Source: Catajapyx aquilonaris
Lineage: Eukaryota
DNA: 45,432 bases
Assembly: GCA_000934665.2 (NCBI GenBank)
Contig: KZ538832.1
Coordinates: 1-45,432, forward strand
Direction: 5' to 3'
Made by a program: the position numbers and the translations under genes. Shown one piece after another: positions 504 to 44,160 of the stretch (the stretch's first letter is position 1; each line of letters begins with the position of its first letter). Under the pieces are notes generated by a model. It worked only from the letters and a program-made list of their open reading frames with translations. It made no database searches and was not told the origin of the DNA.

Positions 504-572
504 TTCCTCCAAAAAATCCGACATGGCCCACAACGGGGTAATAGCCTATAATTTAAAAAATTAAATAAAAAA
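504..572 (+). mobile_element. 5'-truncated retroposon tail (69 bp) of the CACGGGGTA-tail group
   Basis: 10-bp direct repeats TATAGGACGT (494-503, 573-582) flank ...tggcccacaacGGGGTAat plus an A-rich tail. Confidence 0.6.
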
Positions 573-1268
573 TATAGGACGTCAAAAAATAATTCGAATG
601 TAAGTATAGAGAACGTCGCCAGATGCAGCCATGTATCAAGAGAAGAGATGATTATGAGTCAAGTCGTGACAAGCCCTATAATTTAACTAGACTTCTTGTA
701 TACCGACGACCTCGGAAGTAGGACGCAAAGGAACTTTTGATCTGGAACTTGAGTCAGGGATCCCAATAGCCTAGCTGCTACATGCCATTTTCTCTGCACC
801 GGGATGTTATCAGCGGAGTTGATAATTACTGTCCTCGGGTTTCTTTCCCATTCGAAGGAGATCAAAGGCGAGGGAAGCTGGGAGAAGAGGCTGCAGGCCT
901 GGGGGGTTGAAACTGAGCAACGAGACTCGAGTTGAGCTTTACGACTGAAAACCCAAAAGGTTTTTCTCAGCATTTCTGATCATGTCGTTGCGTGAGGATG
1001 AATACAAATAGGATTTATCCAAGTTCTGGCATTAATTTCGACTCTCAGAATTATCCTCACTACAACTTTCACTCTATAATCTACACGGCCTTTTAAAAAT
1101 CAGGCGGTTAAGCTTTCTGTTTATCTGAGGAAAAGGGCAAAGAATGTGATGAAAAGTTGAAGTAATTAATTCTGCAATATATTATTTAAATAAAATGTTT
1201 AATTATCAGTTACGAAGAAAACTGCGGGTGTAGTATACCAACATATTCAGCTGCATGCCTGAAATATA

Positions 1269-1315
1269 TATTTTAAATTGTTTATTTACCCCGATGGGCT
1301 ATACAGCCTGGGGGG
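1269..1315 (-). mobile_element. Ultra-short 5'-truncated retroposon (47 bp): terminal stem-loop + A-rich tail
   Basis: 16-bp TSD with 1 mismatch (gcatgcctgaaatata 1253-1268 / gcatgcctgagatata 1316-1331); minus strand reads CCCCC ca GGCT gtat AGCC catc GGGGTA aataaacaa. Confidence 0.75.
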
Positions 1316-2087
1316 GCATGCCTGAGATATAGTATCTTCCAAGTAAATTAAGGTCTAAAATTATTATATGTTTTATTTAAAGAGTAGTGTGGTGGAGGGA
1401 ATGCTCTCTGAGAACCCTTCTTCTGCACCAAAATACAAGGAAATGATCCTTCTGCTTCCCTCCCCTCTTCCCTTTGCATTATTTCCCTGTTAGCGTTGCT
1501 CATCACAATTCGCAAAGCGCATTAGCATAACTGCGAGTGCTTTTAATTAGGCAATATCTTATACTCTCACAGACGAATGACTCCCCACCTCCCATTTTCT
1601 AAGATGTCCCCGGCTGTTAGCCCAGAACGACACTTTTTAATGGGGTGCAGAGAATAAAATTATTGAGGGCTCCACTGCTGAATGGATTTTGTTACGGGCA
1701 AGACAACAGCCTAGCTGTTCCCCACTGCTTGACTTTTAATTGCTCTCCACCAGTCTTTTCTAGCAGTGAGCAGTTAGATGGTAATACAGCCTCCCTTGCT
1801 ATTTATGATGTATACAGAGAGTTGCACTCCCCAAGTCCCCTGTTCAAAAGGAGAGTACTAGGGGAAGTTATGAAGTGTTTTTATACCAGTAACCAGTTCA
1901 CAGTTAGTTTGGCATTGAATTTTTGCTTTCTTAGTGCAACCACGTTTTGGCAATTTCCATCCTATAGGGTGCAACGGTCCTAGTCAGCGTGTGTCCAAAA
2001 AGTAGGTAAGAAGGTATCCGGGCAGAACCGAGCAAACTTTAGGGTTGCATCCTATGAGCTGGAACAGTAGGCTTTGACTAGGACATA

Positions 2088-2116
2088 CTTCCTTCCTTCC
2101 TTCCTTCCTTCCTTCC
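2088..2116. repeat. (CTTC)n microsatellite
   Basis: About 7 perfect units. Confidence 0.95.
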
Positions 2117-3664
2117 GCTTCCCAGCAGCGGAATTCCCCGCACTCCTAGCATTCAATAGCTCGTAAAGCGATTGTTAACGGGCACCAAAACGCAGAACCA
2201 GCAGCCATAAAATGCCTTTAGAATTAGGGCCATTACTTTTGTACTCCTCCTTCTCTCGCCAGTCAGGAATGTCAGCTCAGGGAAATAAGGAATGTAGCCG
2301 CTCCACTGAAGATGCCCCATTATTCATTACACCTTTGCATTTCCCAACCGTGCATACATATTGGAGGAACTGTTCAGTCTGTAGCCATCAAACAATGTGG
2401 ATTCTCTGGGGTAAGGCTCTGCTATGTTACGGCCTACCAGAATCAGTAGGGCAGCAAAATTACTCCACTGAAGTACATGTCAGGTTGCAATCATTCTGGG
2501 ACTTGATTATGCAAAAGTAAAGCTTGACAAGGTAATTTTGATTCCGATTGCTTGTAAAATAAGCGACGCTGATAACCTGTAGCTCTTAGTGTTGCCAACA
2601 ATCAGACCATAGGAAATAACTCTATCGTAAACGATGCAACGAGCCTTAAAAGAGTGATTAGAAAATTCGTTTTTTTATTCAAAAAGCCACAGTTGAGTTT
2701 TATTTACCCCAATTTATTTCGCTGAGACTAATTTTTTACAGTGGTAGCATTAATGCTCATTCGTATATTATGCTATTTGGTTTTATTAGACTCTTAGAAT
2801 AATTATCAGCTACACAAACCCGACCACTAGTGCACATCACTAGTTCATAGCATAATAGTGAATGTAACTTAAGCAATCTCATAAAAAGAAAAGTGCGTTT
2901 AGATATTTTCATAATCACAGCAGTCTCTAATTAATTTAAATAGGAACACAACTCAATATTGAGTGTCAACCACCTACAAAACATTTGTTATGCACATAGT
3001 TATGAAAATAATCATGTTCTTATAATTAGATTTGGTTTAACCGTGCTTGAAAACTCACCGCGTAAAATTATATCAGAGGTCGTGGCTCGAGTGACATCAA
3101 TTTCAACAACAAAAAATCAAATCCAGCCGCCATATAGTCCACTTAGAGTTACCAGAATTATGCATCACAATGGGGTCAATTATGGAAGATAACCATATCG
3201 CCATCATTGCCATAAGTTCAAAGTAGGCGAGAAACAGTCAGGTGGCATTATTAGATGCTTGGCCTCATAACACTCGGTTATATTTGTTGCTGACTTCCAA
3301 CGTTTATAAATGCCATAAGCGCATATGAAACAAAACGAAACTTCCAGGAAATTAACATATGACTCAAATGCAGCTCTATCTCAAAATTAAATCAATTGCC
3401 CCAAAGCCAATATTGCCTCTTCGTGATGATCCTGCAGATAATTTTCATGAGATTAACGCTGTGCTGACTACACATATTTGCACTGTAGGCTGTTAGTACC
3501 ATCAAGGATTAAATCTCGAAGCTAATAAATGCTGCATGCGTGATTTTTAATCAATTCGGCCATTAGCGTAGCGCAGTATCTGTTTTCAAAAATTATGTTG
3601 AACATAAAGCATCTTTAAAAGTCAGGTTTTTTGGAGGGACCAACTAGAGAGCAGTGTTCATATA

Positions 3665-4373
3665 CAGGGTGGTTGTGAAGTAAGTGCCTATTGGAAATGT
3701 GTAATAAAATTGTCAAATATTGCTCGATTTTCATGAAACAAGATTTATTCTGTACCTTACAATGGGAGAATTTAAACTGCCACTAGTATGCAACTCCACG
3801 ACCCCAGGTGGCAGCAGCAGTCCCGATACCAGTAAAAATGGCGCAGCTGGCGTCCCATTTTGAAGTCGGGGGTCGGTGGTTAAAGTGCAGAGATGGTGGC
3901 GATACATACACGGACCTCGTGCCACAGTTCACCGGAGGACCATAAAGAACTGCCATTCGAAGCTGATGAGCACGGTATCCGTGATGGACAGCCATAGGAG
4001 TGGTCGTCCGTCGACATCGAGGACAGAGGAAAACGTGGCACCGCGATGGTTCGCCCATAGTGGCTTTATGGTCCTGGGGTGAACTGTGGCACGAGGTCTG
4101 TGTATGGATCGCCACCATCTCTGCACTTTAACCACCGACCCCCGACTTCAAAACGGAACGTCAGCTGAGCTCTCTCACGAGCACTAAGTTTCTGCGCCAT
4201 TTTAACTGGTATCGGGACTGCTGCTGCCACCTGGGGCCGTGGAGTTGCATACTGGCGGGAGTTTAAATTCTCCCATTGTAAGGTACAGAATAAAACTTGT
4301 TTCATGAAAATCGAACAATATTTGACAATTTTATTACACATTTCCAATAGGCAGTTACTTTACAACCACCCTG
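3665..4373. mobile_element. Tc1/mariner fold-back element made of two inverted left ends that include the transposase N-terminus (DUF4817-like HTH)
   Basis: TA|CAGGGTGGTTGT...ACAACCACCCTG|TA; arms 3665-3947 and 4064-4373. Reconstructed peptide MAQKLSARERAQL..RFEV/SVVKVQRWWR...TIKNCHSKLMSTVSVMDSHRSGRPSTSRTEENV. Confidence 0.9.
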
Positions 4374-5065
4374 TAGTGTTGGGTTGGTATAGAAATTACT
4401 ATACTCTTCTCCTAGAAGACCCTTAATTTGTTCCGTATCATCCTCATGAATAAAACGTGAGGATTTGTGGGGATGGGTTGGAAGAATAGAAAATAGAACT
4501 CGGAGTCGTAGGTTGCCAGCGACAACCATACATTTTGCAGGTTGGGATGAAAGGATTCTCTCCCAAGCCGCACTTCTGACAATATATTTCTAATCGTTAT
4601 ACATCCAGAGTTTTATGGCAAAATTTTGCATGATTCTGCTCGTCCGTGAAAACCACTTCCATAGAAATGAGCTAATTGGCGAAATATAAGCAAGATATAA
4701 TTTTTACAGATATTCTACTAATATGCAGTCTGTGACTATTAAGGTTCTAATATTTTGAAAGAAAATCATAAAAATTACTTATGTTTGGATTGTCACTTGT
4801 TATGTCCTAGTTCGTAAGTTCCTAACTTTAATCAATTATCATACGCTTTGGTTACCATTCAAACTACATAAATGACCGGAACCATCCCGAAAACAAACGC
4901 GATAAAAAAGTGTTGTTTATAGCTAGACACGTTCGCGTCATAATTGCCTTTGGCAGGCCTAAACAGTATTTATGAGGATCAGCCATCAGTGCTGCTGGTC
5001 TTCAAAATGACCTGTTAATATGAAGCACTTGCTTGAAAATTGTTCAAAAATTGCCACGCTAGTTC

Positions 5066-5312
5066 GACGGTGTTACGCAATAATGAGTCAACCCACATGA
5101 GACCAGTTTTGAGAAAAAGGGCTTTGTAGGTCATACGTGTGAAATTCTTTGTGTGAAGTATTCTTTTCGGTTATTTATGGCAGAAGTATGCAGAATTCAC
5201 CAGCGTGATTTTAACTGAATGAAGTACGCTTCTTTAGGTAGGCTATATGTTCCTGGGCTTAAGCTCTATTTTGACATTTTTGTGAGTTGACCCATTATTG
5301 CATAACACCGTC
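5066..5312. repeat. 32-bp inverted repeat pair (3 mismatches), probable old DNA-transposon remnant
   Basis: gacggtgttacgcaataatgagtcaacccaca (5066-5097) versus the reverse complement of 5281-5312. Confidence 0.55.
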
Positions 5313-9396: not shown

Positions 9397-9675
9397 AGGG
9401 GGCATGGTGGTCTAGTGGCTATATGCTACTGGCCAGCCAAGCGGGAGGTCCGGGGTTCAAATCCCTCCATGTCACCTCTGCTTGGTCGGATCTTTTCCGC
9501 TTCTCATCCATGTCCGGGCAGACTTGTACTCCCTTCTCTGCCCAGGGCGAAGAGAAAATGTCTGGTATTTAAGAAGGTCAGAAATGACTACAAATCGATT
9601 AAGAGTGCCCTCCCTTGGGAACCTCCCATTCCCCATAAAAGGGCCAATGGCCCTATCACGGAGTAATACAAAAAC
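9397..9675 (+). mobile_element. tRNA-derived SINE, family A (tRNA-Gly-like head)
   Basis: A box TGGTCTAGTGG, B box GTTCAAATCC; 15-bp TSD aggtaat(t/g)attaatt (9382-9396, 9676-9690); homologous to 22962-23414. Confidence 0.9.
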
Positions 9676-11896: not shown

Positions 11897-14800
11897 CTAA
11901 AACGAACAAAAACATAATTTCCCTCAAATAATTTTATCATCGCCATCCCACGCCGTCCACATTTAAAGGTTATCGGCTAATTATGACAGGCTGAAAGTGT
12001 CGAAGCAACCGTTCATGTGTGACGTGATACTACACAGTAATTACGGCACGAAATTGTCGATGGGAGATAACAGTTTGACCCAAAGCCCTCTATAGAAGGG
12101 AGTATTAGCAGGCTGGAATCATGGTGATACGTTCATACCGATTTTTCCATGTTAAGTAATATTTTTTTTGGCATTGCATAGAAGGGAAAGATTACTACCT
12201 TCATATGATAGATGGCTCCCAAGTTGAGATGAACATGCGGCAGGTTGTCCTGAATTCCCACCGCTTTCTTGTAGCTGTGGACGGCAGCATCGATGTCGTG
12301 TAAGTCCTTGGCAAGGTCGCCGTGTAAGGCGTACAGAGGGGCGCAGTCCAGGTTGTGATTTAAATTGGGATTGGAGCATGCGGGTAATGCCCTCCGGAGT
12401 AGTTGTGCGGCCTCTCGGGTCCGGTTAAGTTGGCCCAGAAGAGACGCCAGCTGATGAAGGGCCTCTCTGGGACAAGGAAGGGAGCCATCATCGTCCTCGT
12501 CATCATCAGACGAGAGTAATCCCACCCCTTTAACCAGGCTACTCAGCAATCCCTCTGCCTCAGCATACAGCCGCTGGTGGAATTTTGCTTGGGCCTACGA
12601 ACAAACGAAAATTGTTGAGAATAATTTGTCTCTCTTTTGTCCCATTTGTAAGCCATTGACAAACTCACCAGATGCACTTTAGCCAGAGTGTCATTTGGTC
12701 TGGCATCCAACACTTCCTGGAACAGTCGTTCAGCCTGCGAGGCTCGACCAGTGTGCAGATAGAGGACTCCAAGTCCTTCCTTCACTTGAGGATCAGACTC
12801 CTTCTCTAGGGCCCTGTCATTATGGCAGTGTTAGACACCCACTTTCTGACCCCCAAACTGTATCAACGCACCTTTGGTAGAGTGACTCGGCATGATCATT
12901 GAGTCTGAGTTTCCTCATGAGTCTGGCAGCATTCACAAGAGCTACCGTGTGGTTGCCATTAATTTTTAGCGCTTTTTGGTAGTAGCTCAGGGCTTCGTGG
13001 AGTCGTCCTGTACAATTTGTTACCGTTACCTTATGTCAAAACTCAAGGTTGGGTTATTGATACCTGTCTTTTGAAGGATGGCGGCGTAATTATTCAGGTG
13101 GTCGGCATTGTCGGCGTCGGCCAACAGGAGCTTTCTGTGCAGCTTTTCTGCCCGCTCCGGTTGGCCGACGTCGGCATACATGGTTGCCAAGTTGGTCACG
13201 GCGTCCGGGTTGGATCCGTCCAACTCCACGGACCTTTCCATTAGCGCCATTGCCAAGAACAATTGGCCCTCCTGGCTGCAAAAGATGCATGCATGCATTT
13301 TATTACAATAGAAAGTTGTGTACTTTCATACTTCGAGGCTGTTTTGCATGGCTTTGAAAAAGTTGGAATTAGTGTGGGGTAACCGGTAGTTGCTCCACAA
13401 GAATGCGAAGCATAATTAAGTTAATGGCCTCTAAACTGAATGAATATGGAAAGCGGGTTTGATTTCGGGTAAACTGAACCTTCATATTTTTCAGTTTTAT
13501 TTTTTGTAATCAGGATGCATGAGATTAATCAACCTGTTTAATCGATGCTATCTCCTGATATTGTCATATCAATCTATTTGCTACTGGGAAACAAGCTGTT
13601 TCAGTTTATTACATTTCCTTGCTTTACATAATTTCTGGATGAGAGACTTATTACGACATGCGGGGGCAATTCGTTTTGGTGCTGTCCCAATTGTGACGCC
13701 GTAACAATGCATACTATCCAAAAATGAGGTAGAATATTTGCTTCTTATTATACATAGATCCAGTTATCGCCCTCTCTGACTATATGAGAAGGTTACTGAG
13801 CATCCTGAATGTATTTCGGCCACTGACACGTAAACAATATTAGTAGTCTACATCTCCCGTTTACTCTGTCATTGTCACATGTGGTGATGTCATTATTTTT
13901 TAGTGAACTAAATTGACCACATCGTATGCTGTCCATAATATTAAGGATTAAAGTAGGAGTCTCCATCACGGGTGAAGTGTATTACTCGTGTGTATGTTTG
14001 CAATTTAATGAGATACATACACACTAGCTCCAAAAATTTAGACACATTACTTGTTTCATTTAAAATACTGTAAGAGTGTAAGTTATATAAAATGCATTTT
14101 GGGTCGTGTTTCTCTCCAATTGAAAATTTAATGTGTTGCAGTAGTGAAATTATTAGCGGAATTAATGTTTTGTTTACTTTACTCCCACGCGTGATGGGCA
14201 ATTAGCGTTATATTGATGAACGTAATCATTGATTAGCATATCTCTTAATAACATGAAATATACCAAACACCTTACCATAACATCAAGAAAGTAACACCTG
14301 TTTTGCGTACTCATTAGACATTTCGTTATCGATATAAATTCCGGTATTGAAAAATTCCATTTTAATTAAAACGCATTTAATTTCGGATTTATTTCAACGC
14401 GTACCAGCATTTACAAGAGTGTTCACAAGCGCAAGATATTTCAGGAATCATTTTTCATTTTTTAAAAGGAAGCGTCTTATTCAGCGACATTACAAGCACT
14501 CTCAGATGAGTAATGAGGTTTGTTCTAGTACTAACCTGTGGAAGTAATGAAGAGAAAGGAACACACACAAAAGGAACGTGAAACCTAATGACATAACATC
14601 ATGAACATTGTAACGTAAGAATATCTTGCCTCTCTCAACACAATAGCATTAATTCAGCTGGTAATGAAATTGTCTGGTGACACAACGCGAGTCAAGAAGG
14701 AAGAAAGGCATGAAATCGAGTCGCAGAAAGGGGAAGGAATAAAACAGCATTATTTCTCATGGAAATAAATTGGCAATCAGAGAGAGCGCTGAGATGATGC

Positions 14801-20800: not shown

Positions 20801-23800
20801 AGAGGAAACCATTTTCGTAAAAAAATAATGTTACAACGTTCCATCGCAGCAAGATTCCATAATATTGGGTGGAATGGAGAGCAAATTTCATTTGGATCCT
20901 TAAAGGAAAGGGGCTCTTATATAACAGGATATAGCATAACAGCGATCAAGTGGATGCGGATCGAGAAATATGCATGTAGTCCGAAGGTAAATGGATTTGT
21001 TGCCTGGTGACAAGATGAAAAACGTCAATTGGTTCAAAACGCATGGGCAGCATTTACGAAAATTTATTTTTGTGGAAGCAGGTTCCATTATTACACAACT
21101 TCCTTTTTACCCGCGATGCATTTACCTTCCTGCTTATTTCGTAATATCTACTCGAGTTTTTCAAAGACAAATGGTGGTTCTAAGAATTTGGAGGAAGGCG
21201 ACGGCAATCCCGAGCTTAAAGGGATCAATATATTATATAATCGTGGTGCGAACGTTACCGCTCCTGAATTCGCATCTCGCCTCCTTCCTCAAAGCTAACT
21301 AACTGTGCGAAAGGTGGAAAATATTTTGTTTCCCCCTTTAAGATGCCTTTGAGGCATAGTCAAATGAAAAGTCGACAGTTGTCATACTGGCGGAAACACC
21401 TCGCAAAAACTAGAGAGCATCAGCATTCATAAACGGGCTGTAAAATTAACCTTGCGCAAACCTAATTACTGAATATAACGTGATGACTGATGAGAGACTG
21501 TTAGTGAAGTAACGTGGTTTCGAAAATGTCATAATATCGTAATTAACTTACATTCAAACGTGAAGAAAGGAAAGGTAGTGCACGTTTGTAGTTAAACGTC
21601 GGGAGCAGGTTAGTATAAGGAATCGTTTGCATAAATTACAGTAAAGGAAGCAGGCTTAGCATTATTTCTCTCTTTGTACTAGTACTGGATCCTTGCCGAG
21701 GGAGCCGGTCGTATTTCTCCGAGGATTAAGAAAGTGCAGCACAGAAATTACCCCCCAGACCGTAAATATTTCCTTCCAACTTATAGCTGGACCTTTTACA
21801 AGGCAGATAACACTAGTTTGGAGAACAAGCTTCTATCTCAAATCTTGTTAGTCTACCCGGATCAGACAAATGAGCCAATCTCGCTCTGTGCATTGCAGTA
21901 GGCCTTCACTTTGTTTGAGGGTGCACGCCAGGGCCGTACGCAGGGGGGGTTGGGGGGTTCAAACCCCCCCCCCCCNNNNNNNNNNNNNNNNNNNNNNNNN
22001 NNNNNNNNNNNNNNNNNNNNNNNNNNNNNNNNNNNNNNNNNNNNNNNNNNNNNNNNNNNNNNNNNNNNNNNNNNNNNNNNNNNNNNNNNCCCCCCCCCCC
22101 CCCCCACCAGAAAAAAATTCCTGGATCTGCCACTGTTAGGACTAATGGGAGGTCAAGGAGGATTCGACTGTAGTTTGTCAGTTACATTCACCTAGACTTG
22201 CGTAACCTTGAACAACAACAAAAAATTTCGCCTGCGGCGGGATGTCTGTGTGTGTGGGGGGAGCAATCAGGTAACGAACCCCCCCGAACAAAAATCCTGC
22301 GTACGGCCTTGGTGCACGCTTGTAAATCTGAGAACATTGCAGTCTTAATTTCATGCACATGGTGGTTTGAAAGTGACAATATTGATATGAGTTAATAACT
22401 ACTTCATTTAGGCAGTATTTTCAAGCCTGCTTGGCCTTGGCGGAGTGGTGAGGATGGCATACACTTCAGGATAAACCTGATTCAGATCTGGTACAGTACC
22501 CTCACTGTGCTGGCCATGGTCTTAGAATACTAAGGTCTGGACACTCCCTCTTATCGCCTGCCGGTGCGTTTTGCATGAGGTGCTCACTTGAGAGCGCCAT
22601 GAGACAGCTTTTCATTGCGCTATTATGTGGCGAGTGGCGACCCTACCGGACTACGCCGAACTAAGGTAGGAGAGAAGCCGCTACATGCGGGCCCAACAGG
22701 GTCGCCGGCGGCCATGTTGGGTCCCCCAATGTAGCGCTTCCCTTTCGTACCTATAAAGTTCAGCGTAATCCGGTAGGGTCGCCACATATCAGTGCAGTGA
22801 AAGGTCTCATGGCGCTCTCAGGTGAGCACCTCATGCAAAACGCCCCGGCAGGCGATAAGATAAGATTGTAGGGGAAGTGTCCGGGGGCTGGTGCTGGCGA
22901 TTGGATGGTCCAAAATGGAAGAAACACTATACAGAAAGTAACTGCTTACAAATAAGAAACTGTCTTTTTAAAAAAAAAATACCCCGTGATAGAGCCAGTG
23001 GCTCTCTTAGGGGGGAAGGGGGTGGTTCCCTAGGGAGGGCGCTGAAATTTTCAGTCATTTCTGACTTATGAAGATACACCAGGCCTTTTCTACTGGCCCC
23101 GGGCAGATAGGGAGTGAAATTCTGCCCCGGCATGTCGGTGGAAAAGCGGAAAAAGACCCGGCCAAGCAGAGGTGACGGGGACGGGATTTGAACCCCGGCC
23201 TCCCGCTTGGCTGGCCAACGGCGTAAAGGCCATTTCACAAAAAAAAATGTCGCGCGGCAAACGGCGCGCGTTGCGGCAAATTTTTTATTTATATTTATTG
23301 TTGCCAATTGTTGGCAATAATAAATATAAATAATAAATTTGCCGCAACGCGCGCCGTTTGCCGCGCTACATTTTTTTGTGCAATGGCCTTAACCGTTAGA
23401 CCACCATGCCGCCCTACAAATAAGAAACTTAGCGTGCAAACCGAAGCGGACATGATATGAAAATACATTTTCAAGTGAACCTGCATTATGACGCATTAGA
23501 GGTGGTGTTGATACATGTGCTTGTTGCCATTCACAGGTTATTTTCCCCATCGCCGTGTAAGCGGAACACGATGCCTGCAGCGAAAGCGAGTATTTATCGA
23601 CGCCCTTCCATCCATCCATCCTGCAGGGTATGTAATTTCATCCTCCATAAAGGTTGGTCGCTGGGAAATGAAATCGCAATCGTATTTGGAGCCTCTTTGA
23701 CTTAGTCGGGGAGTCCCCGGTAACCGCATCCAGCTCAGGTAATGAATCTGGGGGATCCATCAAGCAACTTGGTAAACGGTTTTAAGAGGAGATCAACTTT

Positions 23801-25673: not shown

Positions 25674-25708
<35 letters not shown>

Positions 25709-28700
25709 ATATCATTTAATTGAGGTCGAGTGAAGAAAAACAAAATCATTATTATTGAGAGTAGTTTATTCGATGCACATACAGTATCTTAGATTACTAA
25801 TTTTTATTTTGGTGTTCATTATTAAGTAAATATTGATGCTATTCCTCAAACCCATTAATTATAACAACCTATCCTCTAGGCGTGTGCAGCCTTCCTTGCA
25901 GCCACATCGTATGAGTTATTTGCACGGCCTCTGCGGCCTCTGGTAGGTTTATACACAATATTTTCTATCCATCTTCACCCTTCTTCCACCCCCAATCATG
26001 TAGCGATGTAAGCTGTGGTTCGACCATCACTATTTGGGCCCAGCAGTAACCTGCCTCATTTGCCTCATTTTGTATACTGAATAAGTACATCTTGCGTGGG
26101 AGGCACATTGTCAATTGCTGTACCTATCTGACTAAATAGGCATCTTCTTGCCTCATTAACATATTATTCGTCGCTGATAGTAGGCCTACGGTCATAGAGC
26201 AAAACTACAGTTCTCTCCAGTGGCAGTGCAGTGGCTTCATTATTTCTTTCTAGTTTACTATAGCCCTGTGAGCCAATCTACACGGTGACATTTCCGTATG
26301 CATTCCAGGTGCCCCATGCAGTCATTTTGCCTCTTCCTCCATTGCTCTATGACCGTACTAGCAGCGACGAATAATAATTATGTTAATGAGGCAATAAAAT
26401 GCCTATTTAGTCGGATAGATAGAGCAATTGACAATATGCCTCCCACGCAAGATGCACTCATTCAGTGTACAAAATGAGATGCCTACCAGGCTGGTTACTG
26501 CTGGGCCCAAATAGTAATAGTCAGTGACATTAGTAAAATTGCAATATGTGTCCAAGCTTATTCACCAGTACACCATGGAAAAGCGAAGACGTGCCAACAT
26601 TTCAGCAATTTTAATTAGTGAAATTATACTGTACATAGAAGATGATAATAATAATGCAATTCAATAACTGCTGTAAATTGGGAATGTCATTAAAACTTTT
26701 CAAGTGTCCTTCGAGTTCTGGAGGAGTCCATGAAGTATTGGATCCAGTAGAAAAAATTTCAGCCCTACTCCGTTGCAGATAACAAAAAAATAAATGACGT
26801 CCTCAACCGTTTGCTCTTAATCTTTCGGCCATAAAAAATCCCAGACCAATTTCACACTATACCGCAGTCATCCTGTAATAAATCGTTCGAAGATCTCCGG
26901 TATGAGATAGGACGAGACAGGAGGAAAGGAAAGGTTAAGCCTCTCACCCGCATTCAAATTGATGATGTTACCGTGGGATATTCGCCCTCGTATTTCGGAC
27001 GGACTTTAATCTCAACTTTTCCTGCCTCAAGGAAAAGGTTCGGGCTGCTAGTATAACAGTCGCCAAAAAAGGCCACGGGAGCAGAAAAAGTCTAACGTAG
27101 AGCGGAACTTACTTTAGGGCCTGTCTGTAGTGGTAAATAGCTTCTTCTGGATTTCCGAGATCCTTCTGAAGATTGGCGTAGTTGTAGTGCATCTTGGCGT
27201 TGTGAGGAAGCAGCTTCAGACCGGATCTGTACAAGAAATAGCAACGTATCATTAGTATCCTTTGCAAGAGTGAGTTTGTAAGCAACGAGATTGTAATAAT
27301 ATGGGAATTTTGAGTGAAAATGTCATAATTACAAGTGGCGATGGCAGAAGGAAGGACTTTATTTTCAAAGAATGTAAGCAACAATGCAGCGACCTTTTCA
27401 CTTTTGTCAGGTTTTATACCGTAATTGCAAACAAATGCGACGCACCGCACCATAGTGCAACCCTGTTCGTGCGTGACGCTTTAGGTTAACAAAGCAGGAG
27501 AATGATATCCCTTTATAGTGCAGCCGCATTTGATGTAGGACACGTCCCGAATCCGCGTCCATCCCCCATGGGAAGCGAACAAATCTAATCTGCAATTTGC
27601 GCCTGGCACATACTAGTGTAAGACCACTTTGGGGGCCAGCACGATTCGGATTTACTGAGCGGAAGTTAGTGCAAAGAGCAAGTGGACCAGGGTCACGTTT
27701 TCGGACGCGCCCGCTGGACATGGCCTGCAACATACTCCAGCAAGTGTCAGACACCTGCCCTCAAGAGACAATGATGGATGAGGGACCCTGAGGTCCCTGG
27801 AGCATCCATTCAAAAGACTACTCACGTGAAGAGGGTCTCCCTGGAGTCCCAGTCTGCGTTCCGTAGTAGCGTCTTGCACACGAACAGGGTCAGCAGCAGT
27901 AGCAGCAGGGGAGCGGGGCAAAGGCGCCGGAATCGCTGGCGCCGAGTCAGACGCTCCAGACCGGATCCCACCAGCAGGCAAAAACCCAGGCTATAGACAC
28001 GTCAAGAGAGAGGAGGACGACGAGGAGGAATAAAGATGGGCTCTTGTCAAGAGCAAGATAATCACACATACTACACATGACTACTCAAACACTACCCAGT
28101 CTGCCAATCACTATGATGTACCGCCAATTATGCAACCACACCTATGATGGGCAGGAAAGAATGGTGCTACTGTAATCTTGGATGGTGTATACAGGGTGGT
28201 CCAAATTCGTGGCACCCGATAGTAGTAATTTTTGTAGCTTGTTGCGCCCCTAACCGGGTGCCTCATTCTATAACTACTGCTATATAGAATGGGGCACCTG
28301 GTTAGGGACACAACAAGCTATAAAAGATAACTACTATCGGGCGATATCAGTTATAATAAAACGACCCACGAATTTGGAACACCCTGTATTATTCATATTC
28401 ATTTAGCCCAAAGAACTTAGTCAATATTATCACATAGGCCTACACCAAGAAGGTGGGTCCATTATTAAGTGTGGCTTTCGAGAGTAACACTAATATTAAT
28501 TCCTGACCAGCAGAAAAGGATGTCCAGCATGATGAAATTGAAAATTTGCGATTTCCACAAGCAAAACAAAAGTAATAATTAACACCAATTTTGGTAGATG
28601 TCTGCTTTTAGCGCGATTCCCTTGAGGCAAAAGCAGGCATTTAACAAAATTGGTGATAATTATTTTTTGTTTTTCTTGTAGGAATTGCAAATTTAGGAAT

Positions 28701-31700: not shown

Positions 31701-33524
31701 CCGCCGGCGCCGTCTTGCATTTTACCGTTTCCCATTTCGCCGCCTCCCATTTCTCTCCCAATCCGTATAATATTTATGTAGTCCTTCATGCGGGCATTGT
31801 CAGAAAGGAAGGATTGTAGCATGCATGATGACGGACGAAATGAGATTCATCGAGTCACGGCGTGGTGGAAAGCTGCTAGTGTTCAGAGATTATACGAATA
31901 CAGACTGACCAAGACCCATGGAGACAAGAAAGACTATAAGGTAAGCACGAGGAACGAACTTAACCAAGCTTGCCCCAATTTTTGAAGTGTGTTAGAGAGT
32001 GTGGAGCGAGGGTTACATTGCGCAATGAAAAGGTGCATAAGGACGACTTGGCCATACACAACCACGCTGCAGACATAGAGCGCCAGCGGGTTTTAGCCCT
32101 TGATTCCATACAGAAGTGGATGGAATATTTAGTTGGCGTAAGCCACATATACGGGCATAAGTTTCAGACATCATCGACGAGAAATAAATGACAACATTTA
32201 CATCGCGAATGCAGTGTTACACTTTTTCTTCTTCTTTGTATTGACTTGCGTCTTCGTGTATGTACCAGTCCCTCAGGCGGCGAATGGCGAAGGCGGCGAA
32301 TGGGAATGAATCATTGGCGGCGAAATGGGAAAAGGCATAATGCAAGGCGGCGAAATGGGGTGATACCCTGCTGAGCACATTTTGCTGGGATCTCAAGCCA
32401 TCACAAAATATAGCTAACATATGAAATACGCCAAGACAAGGACATCCTTATGCCAATTTACTTAAAGAGGGTGATGTTAATATTTTGAAGTGTGTATTAC
32501 GTCACCGAGCATGGTGAATTCGAAATGGAAGATAATTTTAATCATGCAATAGGCCAAGCGTAAACTTGAAAAACGAAAAGAATGTCCGGATTTTGGCAAT
32601 GGAGACACCAGAAATGATGTACTCTCAAGTCTTACCTTTCTGGAAGTGCAGACTTTGACGACAATGGCTACCACCAGAGAGTAGAAGCCCAAGGAAGCTG
32701 CGTTCCTAAGATCCTTCCACTCCTCAACCAATGAGATGGATCCCAGCTGCCAGTCGTAGGACAGTGCAGCGGGACACAGAAGTAGCCAAAAGTTGAAGGC
32801 CGGCAGGTAGGCAAAGGTGAGGAATCTGTCAATCAGATTTGAAAAGTCAGTCCTCCGAGTTTCACTGTGAAATACTTTTTAAAAAATTTACCCCGTGATG
32901 GGCCACATTGACCCGTTTGGGGGGAACCTTTTGATTTCAGGCTTTACATGGCTGAAACCTTTTTACGAATCGCCAGGTCCAAGGTCAGTGTGACTGGGAG
33001 GGAATGTCAAAGTGCAAGTGCAATGTCTGAATATGGTACATTTTGTGAACTCCCCCGGGTGGATTAGTCTGTCGTAGATTCCACCCGAGACGAAGCCAGA
33101 GACGACCCAACTCTGCACAAGATGAAGGGGAGAATGCCCGGCTTGGGATCGAACCCGGGACCCTTCCATCACTGTGGGCGCATACGGACGTTACCGCAGC
33201 GCCACTCTGCCTCCCCATTACAGTGAAATGCATGTGATGTCAGCACTTAATGAATGTATCATGCAGATGAGTGAAAATAATATTCTGCGAGCCACATTAA
33301 TTTATAAGTAATTATCTTACCCGATAAATTGAGGTACAGGTGATGCATAAGAAAATTATGCAAATGTCGATAATACTGTACGTCAGTGGTATGGGTTCAC
33401 TTTGTAAAAACAAGCCTTACCTTGTCGTGAAGTATGGAGAAAATGATGCCGGATTGTCCTGGTCGCAAAACTGCGGTAAACTTCCTTGAAGCATTAATAT
33501 GCGGAAGATGATGAGGAACAGAGT
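11747..33524 (-). CDS. TMTC1: TMTC1-like protein O-mannosyltransferase, 5'-partial, 11 exons: complement(join(11747..11896,12199..12594,12669..12813,12872..13007,13064..13275,15761..15904,27113..27226,27826..27990,31320..31441,32636..32825,33421..33524))
   Basis: Manually spliced 1878-nt ORF with no internal stops; all introns GT..AG with matching phases. Motifs [53 protein letters not shown] and [13 protein letters not shown] are followed by serial TPRs and match TMTC1 as recalled ([17 protein letters not shown]...YDWQVGSIPLV...LPHNAKVHYNYAN). Confidence 0.93.
12199..12594 (-). CDS. TMTC1: TMTC1-like TPR exon: [17 protein letters not shown]...[13 protein letters not shown]
   Basis: cgtag|GCC acceptor, AAG|gtagta donor; 396 nt, phase 0->0; follows a 74-nt intron. 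Confidence 0.9.
12669..12813 (-). CDS. TMTC1: TMTC1-like TPR exon: [48 protein letters not shown]
   Basis: gacag|G acceptor, CTG|gtgagt donor; 145 nt; follows a 58-nt intron. Confidence 0.92.
12872..13007 (-). CDS. TMTC1: TMTC1-like TPR exon: [44 protein letters not shown](R)
   Basis: tacag|GA acceptor, AG|gtgcgt donor; 136 nt, phase 1->2; follows a 56-nt intron. Confidence 0.92.
13064..13275 (-). CDS. TMTC1: TMTC1-like TPR exon: [33 protein letters not shown]...[12 protein letters not shown](G)
   Basis: ttgcag|C acceptor, G|gtatca donor; 212 nt, phase 2->1. Confidence 0.92.
14876..14924. repeat. (GGGA)n purine-rich tract, potential G-quadruplex
   Basis: Repeated GGGA units; contains one N. 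Confidence 0.8.
15541..15617. mobile_element. 77-bp PIF/Harbinger (Tourist-like) MITE
   Basis: TAA|AGGGTGGTATCCACTGCTCAATATCAAGGGG...CCCCTTGATATTGAGCAGTGGAGACCACCCT|TAA; 3-bp TAA TSD. Confidence 0.8.
15761..15904 (-). CDS. TMTC1: TMTC1-like TPR exon: [47 protein letters not shown](Y)
   Basis: aacag|A acceptor, TA|gtgagt donor; 144 nt; HASAxNNLGTL motif. Not in the ORF track. Confidence 0.93.
16086..16210. mobile_element. 125-bp PIF/Harbinger MITE
   Basis: TAA|GGGCCGGTTTCACCGAGCT...AGCTCGGTGAAACCGGCCC|TAA; TIR about 40 bp. Confidence 0.88.
16480..16790 (-). mobile_element. Degraded LINE ORF2 C-terminal relic
   Basis: Fragments [14 protein letters not shown] and [14 protein letters not shown] resemble the RR..D....K.LN..ID and L.VP.ARTNY...S tail motifs of CR1/Jockey-group ORF2. 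Confidence 0.4.
19760..20010 (-). pseudogene. Degraded Tc1-like transposase C-terminal relic
   Basis: [21 protein letters not shown] resembles WPxxSPDLNPIENVW; a downstream [14 protein letters not shown] stretch; several stops. Confidence 0.35.
21929..22311. mobile_element. hAT-type MITE with a second hAT-like end (22118-22135) nested across an assembly gap
   Basis: Perfect 8-bp TSD GTGCACGC (21921-21928, 22312-22319); TIR CAGGGCCGTACGCAGG / CCTGCGTACGGCCTTG (15/16). Confidence 0.88.
21976..22089. other. Assembly gap (114 N) between poly-C runs
   Basis: N run. Confidence 1.
22539..22892. mobile_element. Palindromic (fold-back) MITE, superfamily unassigned
   Basis: Arms of about 155 bp (22549-~22700 versus ~22710-22860); second copy at 45239-45432; no clear TSD. 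Confidence 0.8.
22962..23414 (-). mobile_element. tRNA-derived SINE family A, interrupted by a Harbinger MITE
   Basis: Perfect 15-bp TSD TACAAATAAGAAACT (22947-22961, 23415-23429); A box TGGTCTAACGG, B box GTTCAAATCC; collinear with 9397-9675. Confidence 0.92.
23227..23389. mobile_element. 163-bp PIF/Harbinger fold-back MITE
   Basis: TAA|AGGCCATT...AATGGCCT|TAA; near-perfect palindrome along its whole length. Confidence 0.9.
24949..25021. repeat. 73-bp hairpin/palindrome, possible mini-MITE
   Basis: agcaatgacactcaattt...aaattgagtgtcattgct with an inner tatcacata/tatgtgata pair. Confidence 0.7.
25671..25710. repeat. (AAAT)n microsatellite
   Basis: About 10 units. Confidence 0.95.
25880..26522 (-). 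pseudogene. Relic of a transposon protein C-terminus (XPG/H3TH-like + Cys-rich, AcademX-like) with an inverted partial duplication
   Basis: Minus strand 26340->25880 (middle motifs read from the plus-strand arm): [12 protein letters not shown]...[17 protein letters not shown]...AIDNxPPTQD....YQAGYCWAQ...HDWGWKK...[18 protein letters not shown]; 26342-26522 is an inverted copy of ~26022-26203. Confidence 0.75.
27113..27226 (-). CDS. TMTC1: TMTC1-like exon, first [41 protein letters not shown]
   Basis: tacag|A acceptor, AA|gtaagt donor; 114 nt. Confidence 0.95.
27826..27990 (-). CDS. TMTC1: TMTC1-like exon: [54 protein letters not shown](T)
   Basis: tatag|C acceptor, AC|gtgagt donor; 165 nt, phase 2->2; last TM helices plus KTxxRNxDWxSxExLF motif. 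Its reading frame is not in the ORF track. Confidence 0.92.
28192..28386. mobile_element. 195-bp Tc1/mariner-type fold-back MITE
   Basis: TA|CAGGGTGGTCCAAATTCGTGG...CCACGAATTTGGAACACCCTG|TA; internally palindromic. Confidence 0.9.
28724..28798. repeat. 75-bp palindrome, probable centre of an eroded fold-back element
   Basis: gtgaggtct..tatcacaaaacgtaggtaca / tgtacatacgttttgtgata..agacctcgc. Confidence 0.7.
31320..31441 (-). CDS. TMTC1: TMTC1-like exon: [40 protein letters not shown](S)
   Basis: ttgcag|GAA acceptor, AG|gtaagc donor; 122 nt; TMTC signature [16 protein letters not shown]. Confidence 0.95.
31687..32367 (+). mobile_element. Internally deleted Mutator-like element (MULE) with a FLYWCH mini-ORF
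   Basis: 9-bp TSD ctgct(a/g)agc (31678-31686, 32368-32376); imperfect TIRs with tandem (GGCGGCGAA(A)TGG) subrepeats. Confidence 0.75.
31825..32191 (+). pseudogene. FLYWCH-type zinc-finger mini-ORF (one +2 frameshift; 47-nt intron 31941..31987)
   Basis: [38 protein letters not shown]^[29 protein letters not shown]...[14 protein letters not shown]; gtaagc...tttgaag intron. Confidence 0.7.
32636..32825 (-). CDS. TMTC1: TMTC1-like exon: [41 protein letters not shown]...TSRK (DUF1736)
   Basis: gacag|A acceptor, AAG|gtaaga donor; 190 nt, phase 2->0. Confidence 0.95.
32876..33216 (-). mobile_element. tRNA-derived SINE family C (copy C1, A-type 3' end)
   Basis: B box GGTTCGATCCC; body shared with 40254-40589 and 40787-41197; ends ...tggcccatcacggggtaa; degenerate TSD. 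Confidence 0.88.
33421..33524 (-). CDS. TMTC1: TMTC1-like exon (first in window): [35 protein letters not shown], start of DUF1736
   Basis: Acceptor tttcag|ACT, donor AG|gtaagg; 104 nt, phase 0->2. Confidence 0.93.
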
Positions 33525-34630: not shown

Positions 34631-34960
34631 GGGGAGGTGTGGTGGCCGAGATGGCAACGTCTCGGCTTGCTGAGTGAAAGGCCCCAGGTTCGATCCCCGC
34701 CTGGGGAACTTTCCTTTCACCTGCGTCAGGAGGGTCTCTGACCTGCACCAAGGAGGTGTCTGGCAACCTAACCTCCTGGGGGACAGCACATGACCCCTTT
34801 ACCGACATTGCACTTGCACCTATGTTCCCTCCCCAAAAAATCCCTATCCCTACCCTACATCCTTGTCTCCTTGCACAAGTGTATGAATTTAAGAAGTGAA
34901 AATGGTGGTATCCCACCCCCCTAAAAAGGCTAAGCCTTAGCACGGGGTAACGTAAAAAAA
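34631..34960 (+). mobile_element. tRNA-derived SINE family B
   Basis: A box TGGCCGAGATGG, B box GGTTCGATCCC; TSD GATACTAGTGCCA (34618-34630, 34964-34976); homologous to 43809-44160. Confidence 0.92.
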
Positions 34961-38500: not shown

Positions 38501-38758
38501 ATTTTTATGCTACCTTATTTTCATTAAGCAAATAAATTGCCCTAGTATGTATTTCATAGTGTATGGCAATATTTATTCACTTCTTTGATTAATGCGAATT
38601 ACACTATGCAACACTATATTTGTCCATGGAAATTCATCGTCATATTCGTGTTCCTTAGGTCACAAGTAACTCATAATGAGCATTCATTTTGTCTTTGATT
38701 TGTTTTTGACCTCTGGGCAGTTAAAAACTAAAATCCTCAAATAGAGGAGGTTTTTCCC

Positions 38759-39625
38759 GGACCGTAGGCCTAACCGCACACAGCCCAAGCGCACCTGAGA
38801 AATAAAACACCTGGCCCAAGCGCACCAGCGCAAGCACACCCCGTAACGATCGCACCAGCCCTAATCGCACTCAGCCCAGGAGCATATGGGAACAAAGACA
38901 CCCGGTCTTAGCCGCACTCGGCCCAAGTACACCCAGCCTAAACGCACCCAGGCTAAGCGTCACTCGGTAACAAACGCGACCGGACTTTGCCGCACCCAGC
39001 CCAAACGCACCTGCCCCAAGATCCCCCAGCCCAAATTCTCCCAGCCCAGCCGCACTTCGGCCCAGCCGCACCGAAGCTTTGCTTAGTATGCTTAGTATGC
39101 TTAGTACGATGTACTAACCCAACCTAACCAAACCTAACCTTCACTCGTTGCGGATACAGCCCTATCCTCAGCGTATACAGCCCTATCTTCAGCGGATACA
39201 GGCCTATCCTCAGCGTATACAGCCCTATCTTCAGCGGATACAGGCCTATCGTCAGCGGATACAGCCCTATCTTCACGTAAGAAAAGACGACGAAATCGCT
39301 GGGATTGCCGGGTGAAGCAAAGCTCCTATGCGGCCGGGCCGAAGTGCGGCTAGGCTGGGAGACTTTGGGCTGGGGGACCTTGGAGCAGATGCTCCTGGGC
39401 TGGGTGCGGCAAAGTCCGAGTGCGATTAGGCCGGGTGAAGCAAAGCTCATATGCGGCCGGGCCGAAGTGCGGCTAGGCTGGGGGACTTTGGGCTGGGGGA
39501 CATTGGGACAGGTGCACTTGGGCTGAATGCGGTAGGGGCCGAGTGCATTCATTCCAGGGTGCGTTTGGGCCGGGGGAGTTTCGTCCCAGGTGCACTTAGG
39601 CTGGGTGCGTTTAAGCATCCCGACC
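38759..39625. mobile_element. MULE/Foldback-type non-autonomous element with tandemly repetitive TIRs
   Basis: Perfect 9-bp TSD GTTTTTCCC (38750-38758, 39626-39634); GG...CC ends; arms built of ~15-bp aaRcgcacccagccc units; central AACCT run. Confidence 0.85.
39150..39275. repeat. 21-bp minisatellite x6 (gcgKatacagScctatcBtca)
   Basis: Six units with an alternating 42-bp pattern; preceded by (gcttagtat)x3 at 39081-39107. Confidence 0.95.
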
Positions 39626-40253
39626 GTTTTTCCCAATCAAGCAGGCCTAAATGTTGCTAGAACATCTCGGGTTTTTCGGAAAATAATCACAGCTGTACAC
39701 ACCTATGCCGTAACACTGCATATGAAGTTTCAGCCAAATTACGAAATACAGTGGGGAGGGAAAAAATCGCAAAATTCTGAAAATGGGGCCTTTTTTGGAT
39801 AATTTTTTTCGGATAGTGGAAGTGCTCCAAACCCAATCAACATATACATCATATGAAAGATAAACGCGAGTAGAATGCGCCAATCGAATTTGTTTTTCTG
39901 TAAAATGAACTCAGAAAAACACCTGTGACATTTCATCAGTCACATGTCCAAGAATTTGGCTTCATTAAAATTAATAGAAATTCGGCAAACATATCTATTA
40001 TTTTCTCACGAGCCATGCATGACCCAGGATTGAAACTGAACATAATTATTGAATTTTGTATGGGTAGCAACTCCTGTCACCAAATATGGCTGCTCTTATG
40101 CGCAAATACATCACTAATTGTTGGGGTCTAAACACTTGGACATGTTACTGAGCAGGTGACGGATGGAATGCCATACATGTTTTTCTGAGTGCATTTTCGA
40201 GAAAATCAAATTCCATAGGCACATTCTACTCGCGTTTCTCTTTCATTTGATGT

Positions 40254-40589
40254 TTATTGTTTATTTGTTTACTGTACCCCATTATCGGGACCAGGGCCCT
40301 TGTTAGGGGAGTGGGATACCACCATGTTTGGAACCTACATAATGTGTATGTTTTAATTGTTCCAAGAGTAAGTAGGAGGGGATATGCAAAGTGCAAGTGC
40401 AATGTCGTATATTGGTCATTTTGTGAACTCCCCCGGGTGGATTAGTCTAGCGGAAATTTCCTCCCGAGACGAAGCCAGAGACGACCTAAACTCAGCACGA
40501 GATGAAGGGGGGAACCCCGGGCTGGGATCGAACCCGGGACCTTAACATCCGTGGGCGCGTGCGTTACCGCAGCAGCACTCCGCCTCCCC
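40254..40589 (-). mobile_element. tRNA-derived SINE family C (copy C2, B-type 3' end)
   Basis: 16-bp TSD ct(c/a)tttcatttgatgt (40238-40253, 40590-40605); B box GGTTCGATCCC. Confidence 0.9.
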
Positions 40590-40786
40590 CTATTTCATTT
40601 GATGTATAATATGTTGATTGGGTTCTGATCACTTCCAATAACCGAAAAAATTATCCAATAAAGGCCCCATTTTTAAAATTTCGCGATTTTTTCACTCCCC
40701 ACGGTATTTCGCAATTTGGCTGAAACTTGATATGAAGTGTTACGGCATAGGTGTGTCCTGCTGTGATTATTTTCAAAAAAAATCCT

Positions 40787-41125
40787 GGGGAAACGAAGTG
40801 GCGCTGCGGTAACGTACCGTAGGTTCCCAGTCTTCCCACGGATGTTAAGGTCCCGGGATCAAATCCCGCTCGGGGTTACCCCCTTCATCTCGTGCAGAGT
40901 TAAGCGGTCGTCTCTGGCTTCGTCTCGGGTGGAATCTCCAACAGACTAATCCATCCGGGGGAGTTCACAAAATGTACCACGTTCAGACATTGCACATTCC
41001 CTACCAGTCACCCTGCCCGTGCGCCCGGGCGCTTCGCTCAAGGTTTCAAATGTACATCCGACTATTTTAATGACCGTGCGTTTAGGTCCGTGCGAAACAC
41101 TTGAAGGGTGACCGCACTATCCACG

Positions 41126-41197
<72 letters not shown>
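40787..41197 (+). mobile_element. tRNA-derived SINE family C (copy C3, distinct 3' end with an (ATT)24 tail)
   Basis: TSD AAAAATCCT (40778-40786, 41198-41206); C-type head and core; (ATT)n at 41126-41197. Confidence 0.9.
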
Positions 41198-41199
<2 letters not shown>

Positions 41200-43808
41200 A
41201 AATCCTAGATGGTTTAGCAACATTTAGGCCCGCTTGAATGGGAAAAACTGCTATATTTGAGAATTTTGGTTTTTTGCCTGCCCAGAGGTCAAAAACAAAT
41301 AAAACACAAAATGAATGCCCATCATGAGTTACTTGTGACCTAAGGAACACGAATATGACGATGAATTTCCATGGACAAAAATTTATTTTGTTGCATAGTG
41401 TTATCTAAGCGAGGCTGCTGAAGTCAAATGACACCTTACATACAGCGATCATCTAGTGCTTAGGTTTTCACTTTGGAAATGCCTGAATCATGATGAACCA
41501 CCTTGTGTAGGTGTTCACACTGCCGGTGACAATACGTCACATCAGATAGACTTTACCGGTGTATTAAAACAATAGATATCCAATACTGTACAGTGTATGC
41601 GAGTTTCAAAAACAATTGCAAAATAATGAAATTACATGTTGTGCAGTAAAGAGAATATATTATTGCTGTAGGAGGTAATAACATGAGTGACATTCATTGC
41701 AGATTGCATAGAGGCGTCAATGACACACGCATAATTTTTTTCTTGGTTTATAGAAACGGTCTGACAAGTGAGTAAATGGTGCATAACATAACAAACTATT
41801 GTAGTAGCTTTCCAGTCAACGGCTAAGGACAGGCGGAATTCAGAGATTTCCATCGTTTGCCACCGTTATTGTGAAGATTTGGTGAATTGGGCTCAATTCA
41901 TATTTCTCACAAATATAGGCCAAATACATTCAGTATCTGTTATTCCTACTAAACCCGGGCTAGCGCAACCGTCCCCAAGAGCACAACTAATTGCATCCAT
42001 TGGCAAGTACAGTATATCCTGAAAGTTATGCTTTACCAAGTAAAACTCATCTTATCCTGACACTCCAGGGCAATCCATTCGCCTCTCTTACCATGCTGGT
42101 TATCGCCATTCCAGGATGAATAAGGTTTTGTCTCTGACTGTGAGAATGAGCAGGTCAGTAGTCTAATAAGCCATTCCGCCACAAAAGTATGGTCAGGGGT
42201 CAGGGGTCAGATGGTAGAAATTGGGAGTAGGTTGGACAAGGATGTTGCCTTCCTTCACCCTTGGAGGACCAGATTCTACCGCAGAAACTGTTCCCATAAG
42301 CAATGAATACTAACCGGAATGAGCAGTGGCGCTTCGGTTCTGGCTAACGGAAATTGCATTTGGCAATATGGGGACGACCTGATGATGATTCCGACCGGGA
42401 TCTTTCAAGCCCCCAGAATGCTCTCATACGGTACTGTACCAAGCGGAGATACGTCGAGTAACTTTGGCGACCGCAGGAGATGATGAGTAATGTGCTGGTG
42501 ACTGGCAATGCTTTTGTACTTTTGCTTCGCATTTCAGAGGTAACAGTTTGCTTTTACGCAAGTTGCGTATCAATTTAGCTGCATGACACCATTCAAATAA
42601 GAAAAATATTCAGAACTCTCACGGAGTATACGAGGCATTTGACTTCAGCGTCAATTTTATGAAATTGCAAATTTGAATAATTCAAATTTGCAAAATATTG
42701 TGTAAATGCGAATTATTTAAATTTTCAAAATATTCCGACACATTGAATTATAATATTCTCACATTTCGATCGTTTCTTCTTTCTTCTCGTATGGCTTATA
42801 CCGACTTTCCGACGTGGAACACGAAGACGTTTTGTGTCATCCGCTTGTTGACTGAAGTGACGCGTCATGAGTAGGCCTACATGGCATTTCACATTACTCT
42901 TAGCAGGTGCCCGCCCCTGGACCTACACTGGACAGCTTTCAGAACTCCTCGCATTCGCCTGACGACAAACCGACACAATGTATAGTTAAACAGCACATAC
43001 AGTAAATTATGCCTCAAGGAAAATTTGCATAATATTATTTTCCTTTATAATAATATCAGTCCTGTAGGAATGATTTCGTAATTTTAAATAATGATAAGCA
43101 GTCATTTTGCTTCAGATTGGGAATTACGTTCAGTTATTTTACGTTTCCTTATTTTCCTTAGACGGCAATAATAATCTTACAGTCCGTAAGCATACTGCAA
43201 ATGGAAGAAGAAATGCTATACAGTAGTGTAATAAAGGTTTAATAATTTCAAAATTGCAGCCTGAACACTACGGGTATAAATACTTGTTAAGGATATTGCA
43301 TATTTTCGGGACACCAGCGATGGATTGAGGAAAATGTATGATGTGTAACAATGCATTGTGTTGATAGGTCGTGAAGTCAACGAGTATGGGGAAGCCGGAG
43401 AGCCGATTCGGAGGCAGACACCCACAATACCTAATTCATTACCTACACCTGCTTTACGTTCGCCGCATTGTGTCACTATCATAACGCGTCTTGTCAGCTA
43501 CTGAGCTTCCGAAATCTTCACTTGCCACATTGTCAATTGGGATGTAAAATATAGCCATTCAGATGTTCATTTGGAGAGGTATTTTAGATAAATAATGCTG
43601 TAGAAAGACAAAGATTTGAGCATCTATTTTTCTAAAGTTTTATACTTGAAATCTACGTAAAAATCGAAACATCCAAGAAAGATAGGAAATAGAAATTCGG
43701 AAATGACTTTGATCCACATTTAAACGGCTTGTCTAGCTCCAAAAGACAGGCCTAAGCTTCTATAGAAAAGGCGATAGCATTATACAGTATTATTCCTCCA
43801 TGTAAGTT

Positions 43809-44160
43809 TTTATTATTTATTATTATTTTTTGTACCCCGTGATGACCCTTACGGGTTATATAGGGGGTGGTACACCACCATTTTTCTATCAATGTTCTGA
43901 TTTTATCTTCACTCCGGTGCAGGGAAACAAGGACATTGGGTAAGGATATGGATTTTTGGGGAGGGAACATGGGGTGCAAGTGCAAGGTCTGTAAAGGGGT
44001 CATGTGCTGTTCCCCAGGAGATTAGGTTGCCAGACACCTCCTTGGTGCAGGTCAGAGACCCTCCTGACGCAGGGGAAAGGGAACTCCCAGGCGGGGATCG
44101 AACCTGGGGCCTTTCACTCAGCAAGCCGAGACGTTGCCATCTCGGCCACCACACCTCCCC
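43809..44160 (-). mobile_element. tRNA-derived SINE family B
   Basis: 14-bp TSD cctcc(a/c)tgtaagtt (43795-43808, 44161-44174); head nearly identical to the 34631 copy. Confidence 0.92.

Follow-up and report, generated by a model that had tools for sequence, protein, structure and literature searches.

A two-tiered 3' tail common to putatively tRNA-headed SINEs and a likely RTEX radiation of LINEs in Catajapyx aquilonaris

How insertions with different bodies come to end in one and the same 3' structure is a question raised by a 45,432-nucleotide stretch of Catajapyx aquilonaris DNA (contig KZ538832.1, positions 1 to 45,432; hereafter the window). A preliminary description reported eight such insertions, six of them short interspersed elements (SINEs) with three different heads and two of them headless mini-insertions, and proposed that one lineage of long interspersed elements (LINEs) mobilises them all by a shared 3' stem-loop. 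All eight are present, each is bounded by a target-site duplication (TSD; 10-16 bp across the set), and the inner hairpin arms quoted for them are found in the sequence. Comparison with LINEs of the same genome leads us to regard it as probable that the motif is the 3' cis-signal of an RTEX-type LINE radiation and that at least four tRNA-headed SINE families have borrowed it.

The two-tiered tail and the LINEs that carry it

The tail RNA can fold in two tiers and directly precedes an A-rich or microsatellite end. The outer stem is 4 bp long (CCCC/GGGG) and encloses an internal loop, rich in A and roughly 5x5 nt in size, with C-N-A-A-A facing A-N-C/A-A-Y, above which stand an inner helix of 4-6 bp that is free in sequence and an apical loop that is free in both length and sequence, in LINEs as in SINEs. 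In the LINE set and the SINE set alike, sequence is conserved on both strands of the internal loop. The suggestion that these elements share structure rather than sequence thus holds for the inner helix and the apical loop, whereas the CCCC/GGGG stem and the internal loop are kept in sequence. An extra short hairpin upstream of the outer stem was considered and rejected (3.65 bp versus 3.85 bp in shuffled sequences, 31 families).

The genome contains LINEs with the same 3' motif. In a search of the genome for the reverse transcriptase (RT) family, 150 of 929 candidates were scored and 110 of those loci were read, 80 of them selected as likely non-LTR, giving 97 RT rows; a strict tail rule is satisfied 850-1250 nt past the RT in 32 of the 97, and 27 of these 32 come from a single subclade of 36 rows in a quick 97-row RT tree (SH-aLRT 92). 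By eye, most rows of this subclade that fail the rule belong to copies that are truncated, interrupted or eroded. A search with the C-terminus of open reading frame (ORF) 2, in which 150 of 1,073 candidates were scored and 80 further stretches added, yielded 156 distinct ORF2 ends, of which 95 are followed by a tail anchored by C4 and G4. These 95 form 33 clusters below 70% amino-acid identity in the ORF2 C-terminus and 32 were retained, cluster L304 being dropped as a LINE family because a SINE is inserted at the LINE end. The proposed single LINE lineage is therefore one clade, but one that has radiated into at least 32 divergent two-ORF families less than 70% identical in the ORF2 C-terminus. 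Each family has its own inner-helix sequence, and part of the SINE variation may therefore mirror different LINE donors. Sister LINE families, as judged by eye, keep the two-tier fold but have different letters in the outer stem.

Full-length copies are seen in 6 of 14 long loci and are 4.7-5.1 kb in length, with two ORFs and TSDs of 13-16 bp. ORF2 encodes an APE endonuclease, an RT and a C-terminal CCHC motif, without RNase H, and ORF1 is separate; ORF1 has no Pfam match over the cut-off, and leads from an atlas comparison point to L1-type RNA-binding ORF1 clusters. We note that the ORF1 ends of L143 and L144 read identically while their ORF2 families and tails differ, which hints that LINE families have recombined or that the assembly is chimeric.

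A covariance model (R2) was trained on the 32 LINE tails only, with no SINEs included. When the window is scanned with R2, the eight insertions are the top 8 of 18 matches at E<=10, with E-values (which are rough) of 1.4e-5 to 0.048, compared with 1.2 for the ninth match. Twelve outgroup loci of other LINE clades in the same genome give no sense-strand match. In LINEs and SINEs alike, covariation of the inner helix exceeds that in shuffled and slid controls, in agreement with the preliminary description. In a sequence-only MAFFT alignment of the 32 LINE tails there are double changes at 5/5 inner-helix pairs, amounting to 31 cells versus 12.5 +/- 3.1 in shuffled alignments (0/500), and 68% of the cells are paired. 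With the register fixed from the anchors, the 20 of 32 families whose 5' anchor is clear have Watson-Crick pairs in 70 of 100 inner cells; the controls reach 22-37% when slid and 46% when permuted (maximum 62%, 2,000 permutations). For the SINEs, 33 representatives of 50 distinct cores have 93 of 132 cells Watson-Crick versus 57.6 +/- 5.2 (0/5000 permutations), with a preference for this register in families A, C and D. The outer stem of the 32 anchored LINE families is 97% paired and does not covary, because the rows were chosen for their C4/G4 stem; RNAalifold applied to the LINE tail alignment predicts the outer stem alone.

The LINE radiation is likely to belong to the RTEX clade. By eye, the motifs of one of its RTs (P0121) match the RTEX reference rows of a published alignment (PMC10294476, Additional file 30) but not the rows given there for Daphne and Proto2. 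The domain composition, with APE, RT, a C-terminal cysteine motif, an ORF1 and no RNase H, is that of RTEX-type LINEs, as are the ORF layout and the size of ~4.9 kb, the mean RTE-X length being 4,937 bp (PMC10294476). A FastTree phylogeny of 111 rows places the radiation among RTE-group-like rows and apart from those resembling Daphne/Crack, Proto2 and I; the radiation seen here is specific to this genome, with 17/17 sampled rows in one branch (support 100). This tree holds no named reference, and the RTEX assignment is therefore likely and not proven. The nearest named proteins, at 32-36% identity, are those of a pseudoscorpion; next come mollusc-type contigs, lancelet, coral and frog. Daphne/L2, Nimb and Proto2 were rejected as partners on RT motifs and domains.

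SINE insertions and headless copies in the window

The three different SINE heads are confirmed, with two copies of each. Family A is represented at 34631..34960 (plus strand; tail 34909-34951; TSD 34615-34630/34961-34976, 15/16), a member of a young subfamily whose copies are 93-98% identical, and at 43809..44160 (minus strand; tail 43831-43875; TSD 43795-43808/44161-44174, 13/14), the inner helix of which differs from that of the first. The family B copies lie at 32876..33216 (minus; tail 32887-32932; TSD about 32864-32873/33220-33229, 9/10) and 40254..40589 (minus; tail 40273-40317; TSD 40238-40253/40590-40605, 15/16), the latter with an A-type segment immediately upstream of its tail. Those of the putatively tRNA-type family C are at 9397..9675 (plus; tail 9621-9667; TSD 9382-9396/9676-9690, 14/15) and 22962..23414 (minus; tail 22978-23022; a perfect 15-bp TSD, 15/15). 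This last SINE carries a palindromic insert of ~165 nt (about 23225-23392), resembling a miniature inverted-repeat transposable element (MITE), in its head between the promoter boxes. The members of each pair are 92% (A, over 247 nt), 83% (B) and 78% (C) identical.

In size (279-352 bp), lack of coding capacity and dispersal in many TSD-bounded copies, these elements are as expected of SINE2 families, and a first look at the 285.6-Mb genome gives 1,587-3,713 candidates per family. B-box-like words are common to heads A, B and D (see below) and are also visible in C. Scanning of the window by ARAGORN finds no tRNA, and Rfam finds nothing at gathering score, a common outcome for SINE heads. The two-tier structure is the minimum free energy fold in 6 of the 8 insertions (z -0.85 to -2.67), although such single-sequence folding is weak evidence; the SINE at 40254 prefers an alternative fold (z +0.7).

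A more varied picture emerges from 71 TSD-bounded SINEs collected genome-wide (32 A, a set biased by the query, 24 B and 15 C), in which the tail class of five rows was corrected by eye. One of the A copies, 16 of the B copies and two of the C copies end in a second tail class, unrelated to the first, with (ATT)n. Because the same heads carry two tail classes, heads and tails are modular, and that they can be exchanged is shown by a ninth SINE overlooked in the preliminary description. It lies at about 40787-41200 on the plus strand, has the family B head and body, and ends in the second tail and (ATT)n; this tail has a nested hairpin of its own and no R2 match. No partner for the second tail was found among the LINE loci read. 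The CCCC/GGGG tail is also borne by a fourth head, family D (L339, L342, L334), so that at least one SINE family beyond A-C carries it, and probably two or more do. Further heads with this tail are seen at L002, L017, L026, L084, L201, L229 and L243.

The two mini-insertions are not borne out as a separate headless class, and fit instead LINE or SINE copies cut very short at the 5' end. The one at 504..572 (plus strand; R2 match 498-542; 10-bp TSD 494-503/573-582) has, as had been noted, an eroded tail, lacking the inner helix (z +0.5); it is a single copy genome-wide at up to two mismatches and is probably a 5'-truncated retrocopy. The other, at 1269..1315 (minus strand; TSD 1253-1268/1316-1331, 15/16), consists of the stem-loop and A-rich end only, its 5' end coinciding with the outer-stem base. 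Its two relatives in the genome have different 5' ends, one starting at the stem base (TSD by eye) and the other including 20 nt that resemble the 3' untranslated region of L064/L084-type LINEs. Neither mini-insertion thus has the several copies with one 5' end that mark an independent headless family. TSDs were found in 12 of 20 pattern loci, at 1, 2, 22, 24, 32, 47, 53, 82, 215, 222, 440 and 452 nt upstream of the C-run, and this is a continuum typical of 5' truncation. The 5' ends of the 1269 insertion, L326, L344, L346 and perhaps the 504 insertion lie no more than about 5 nt from the stem base; an excess of such starts is possible, and 12 offsets cannot establish it. Among 229 anchored tails there are no mini-insertions by an exact-TSD rule, which is too strict, and one by a relaxed rule; the 55 unassigned anchors among the mined tails are mostly chance matches.

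The SINEs of the window are interspersed with minus-strand exons (12136-12594, 27112-27480 and 32480-32878, with DUF1736 and TPR matches) of a gene for a TMTC-like O-mannosyltransferase. A nested inverted-repeat element spans 38616-41382, with arms at 38616-38727/41271-41382 and 39672-39808/40645-40781, and contains two B SINEs and a 21-nt tandem array (39129-39296). MITE-like elements with long terminal inverted repeats are located at 1-458, 3663-4375, 22549-22897, 26022-26522 and 45246-45431.

How the tail may be recognized, and the alternatives

As in stringent SINE/LINE pairs, the 3' end is common to the SINEs and to autonomous LINEs of the same genome, and the conserved stem-loop has compensatory changes (relatedness among rows being ignored). 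Identity between SINE and LINE cores has family medians of 0.74-0.82, and the nearest-neighbour median between LINE families is 0.79. Two clear LINEs, L329 and L330, end in a SINE-type 3' strand (20 of 21 pattern matches read), and the tail core of the family C SINE at 9397 is close to LINE families L330, L089 and L294. The simplest reading would be that the SINE tail was taken from the RTEX-like clade and has drifted under structural selection with occasional exchange. By analogy with L2 elements (PMC4176376), the ORF2 protein would bind the tail and prime at the nicked target, with reverse transcription starting on the repeat end. From the pattern of conservation we infer that the protein holds the RNA by its outer stem and internal loop, and that the inner helix may be needed as shape only. 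A helix of this kind would allow SINE tails to drift while being served by several LINE families, with tails occasionally swapped among elements, and the headless insertions would be copies whose reverse transcription stopped at or shortly past the stem base.

Several observations weigh against this scenario. Of the 50 SINE cores, only 3 are at least 85% identical to any of the 71 LINE cores, and therefore no cognate LINE emerges for families A, B and D. Family B SINEs have no preference for register 0 (34/60 versus 36/59 slid), the 5/5 register was picked after viewing the data, and the shuffle and permutation statistics ignore relatedness among rows. The folding energy of the whole LINE tail is modest (median z -0.98, 28% below -2; coding controls have a median of +0.27, with 2% below -2). 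TSD lengths agree between the six full-length LINEs (13-16 bp) and the SINEs with the CCCC/GGGG tail (median 14.5), but the median is 14 in SINEs with the second tail class, and TSD length therefore cannot discriminate partners. The name of the clade rests on comparison by eye and on a tree without named rows.

The alternative that survives best is that each SINE tail derives from one LINE family that reads its own inner-helix or loop sequence, with most partners unsampled or extinct, in which case the SINE covariation merely mirrors LINE divergence. We consider this unlikely. In its favour, the sample covers 156 LINE ends from a pool of at least 1,073 candidates, the L252/L296/L299 inner helix recurs at 86-88% in single copies of A and C, L330 closely matches family C, and ZfL2-1 and ZfL2-2 reject each other's stem-loop (PMC4176376). 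The alternative fits poorly with the 47 of 50 SINE cores that fall below 85% to any LINE core and are no closer to LINEs than LINE families are to one another, or with the young A subfamily, which has no matching LINE in the sample. Similarity between SINEs and LINEs moreover ends at the C-run, the LINE motif just upstream being absent from the SINEs.

Short inverted repeats can self-correct, and the inner-helix covariation could in principle be a mutational by-product of template switching at a quasi-palindrome, only the sequence-conserved parts being of consequence. The entire loss of the apical loop in some copies would be in keeping with this, but the young A variants are mostly one-sided breaks, so that the arms are not quickly repaired after insertion, and the helix holds a fixed register and length without growth; we therefore judge this explanation improbable. 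Least credible, to the point of being very improbable, is that the fold, which in LINEs directly precedes an AATAAA-like word, serves 3'-end formation or RNA stability (as a polyadenylation aid or nuclease block) and not RT recognition, given that RNA polymerase III-type SINEs and LINEs share it exactly at the priming end and that it is clade-restricted, like the RT-bound tails of L2 (PMC4176376).

If the tail is indeed a borrowed RTEX signal, a bolder extension may be entertained tentatively. RTEX ORF2 proteins might read the A-rich 5x5 internal loop on its C/G stem and not the apical loop, which would unite dozens of LINE families with at least four SINE families in one cross-mobilising pool; release of the RT at the stem base might make the bare 35-nt stem-loop the minimal retroposed unit; and the two-tier tail, by eye and without statistical support, may be an ancestral RTEX feature across kingdoms. 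RTEX-like 3' ends from other organisms appear two-tiered by eye in L377, L379, L381, L418, L424, L385, L353, L356, L363 and L390, some with A-rich linkers of similar length. The CCCC/GGGG model R2 has no match in 23 foreign loci, folding of the 10 foreign loci scored gives z of -1.8 to +0.9, which leaves generality unsupported, and the single GTDB locus stops 14 nt past the ORF.

Relation to known SINE/LINE pairs

That SINEs borrow LINE tails with compensating stems is an established principle for L2, CR1 and maize L1, and tail exchange is known for RTE SINEs (PMC5786205). With ZfL2-1/ZfL2-2 and UnaL2/UnaSINE the elements described here share a 3' stem-loop before a repeat end that is common to SINE and LINE, and ZfL2 assays tolerate exchange of the stem sequence so long as the arms still pair (PMC4176376). 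The apical loop gives specificity in L2 tails (PMC4176376), whereas here it varies freely in length and sequence; the conserved letters lie instead in the internal loop and outer stem, and the LINE, with TSDs of 13-16 bp, is probably of the RTE group and not L2. Maize and sorghum LINE1-1_ZM and ZmSINE2/3 similarly have a common 3' hairpin of ~50 nt in several SINE families, whose stem letters vary with compensatory changes while the letters flanking it are conserved, but that LINE is of the L1 clade and has a single hairpin with a conserved loop (PMC3747384). Different bodies with one tail and compensatory changes are also seen in CR1-14_CGi with BivaV-SINE2 and BivaCORE-SINE1, and in the bivalve HCD-SINEs, as are several tail classes on one body; the partners there are CR1, CR1-Zenon, L2 and Nimb, and the covariation comes from few consensus sequences, compared with 32 LINE families here (PMC4824008, PMC11481361).

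The 2013 table of SINE/LINE pairs, in the portion of PMC3747384 available, lists no RTEX partner, and we found no RTEX-SINE pair or tail of this kind in the literature, with Repbase, Dfam and SINEBase outside the search. The general principle being textbook knowledge, the gain is mainly for retrotransposon specialists. If the interpretation is correct, RTEX joins the LINE clades known to mobilise SINEs. The 32 LINE families and 50 SINE tail variants would then constitute an unusually rich natural mutagenesis of a LINE cis-signal that points to the letters read by the enzyme, and the standing question of how stringent LINE families coexist in one genome, and whether cross-mobilisation occurs among them and their SINEs, would become directly testable.

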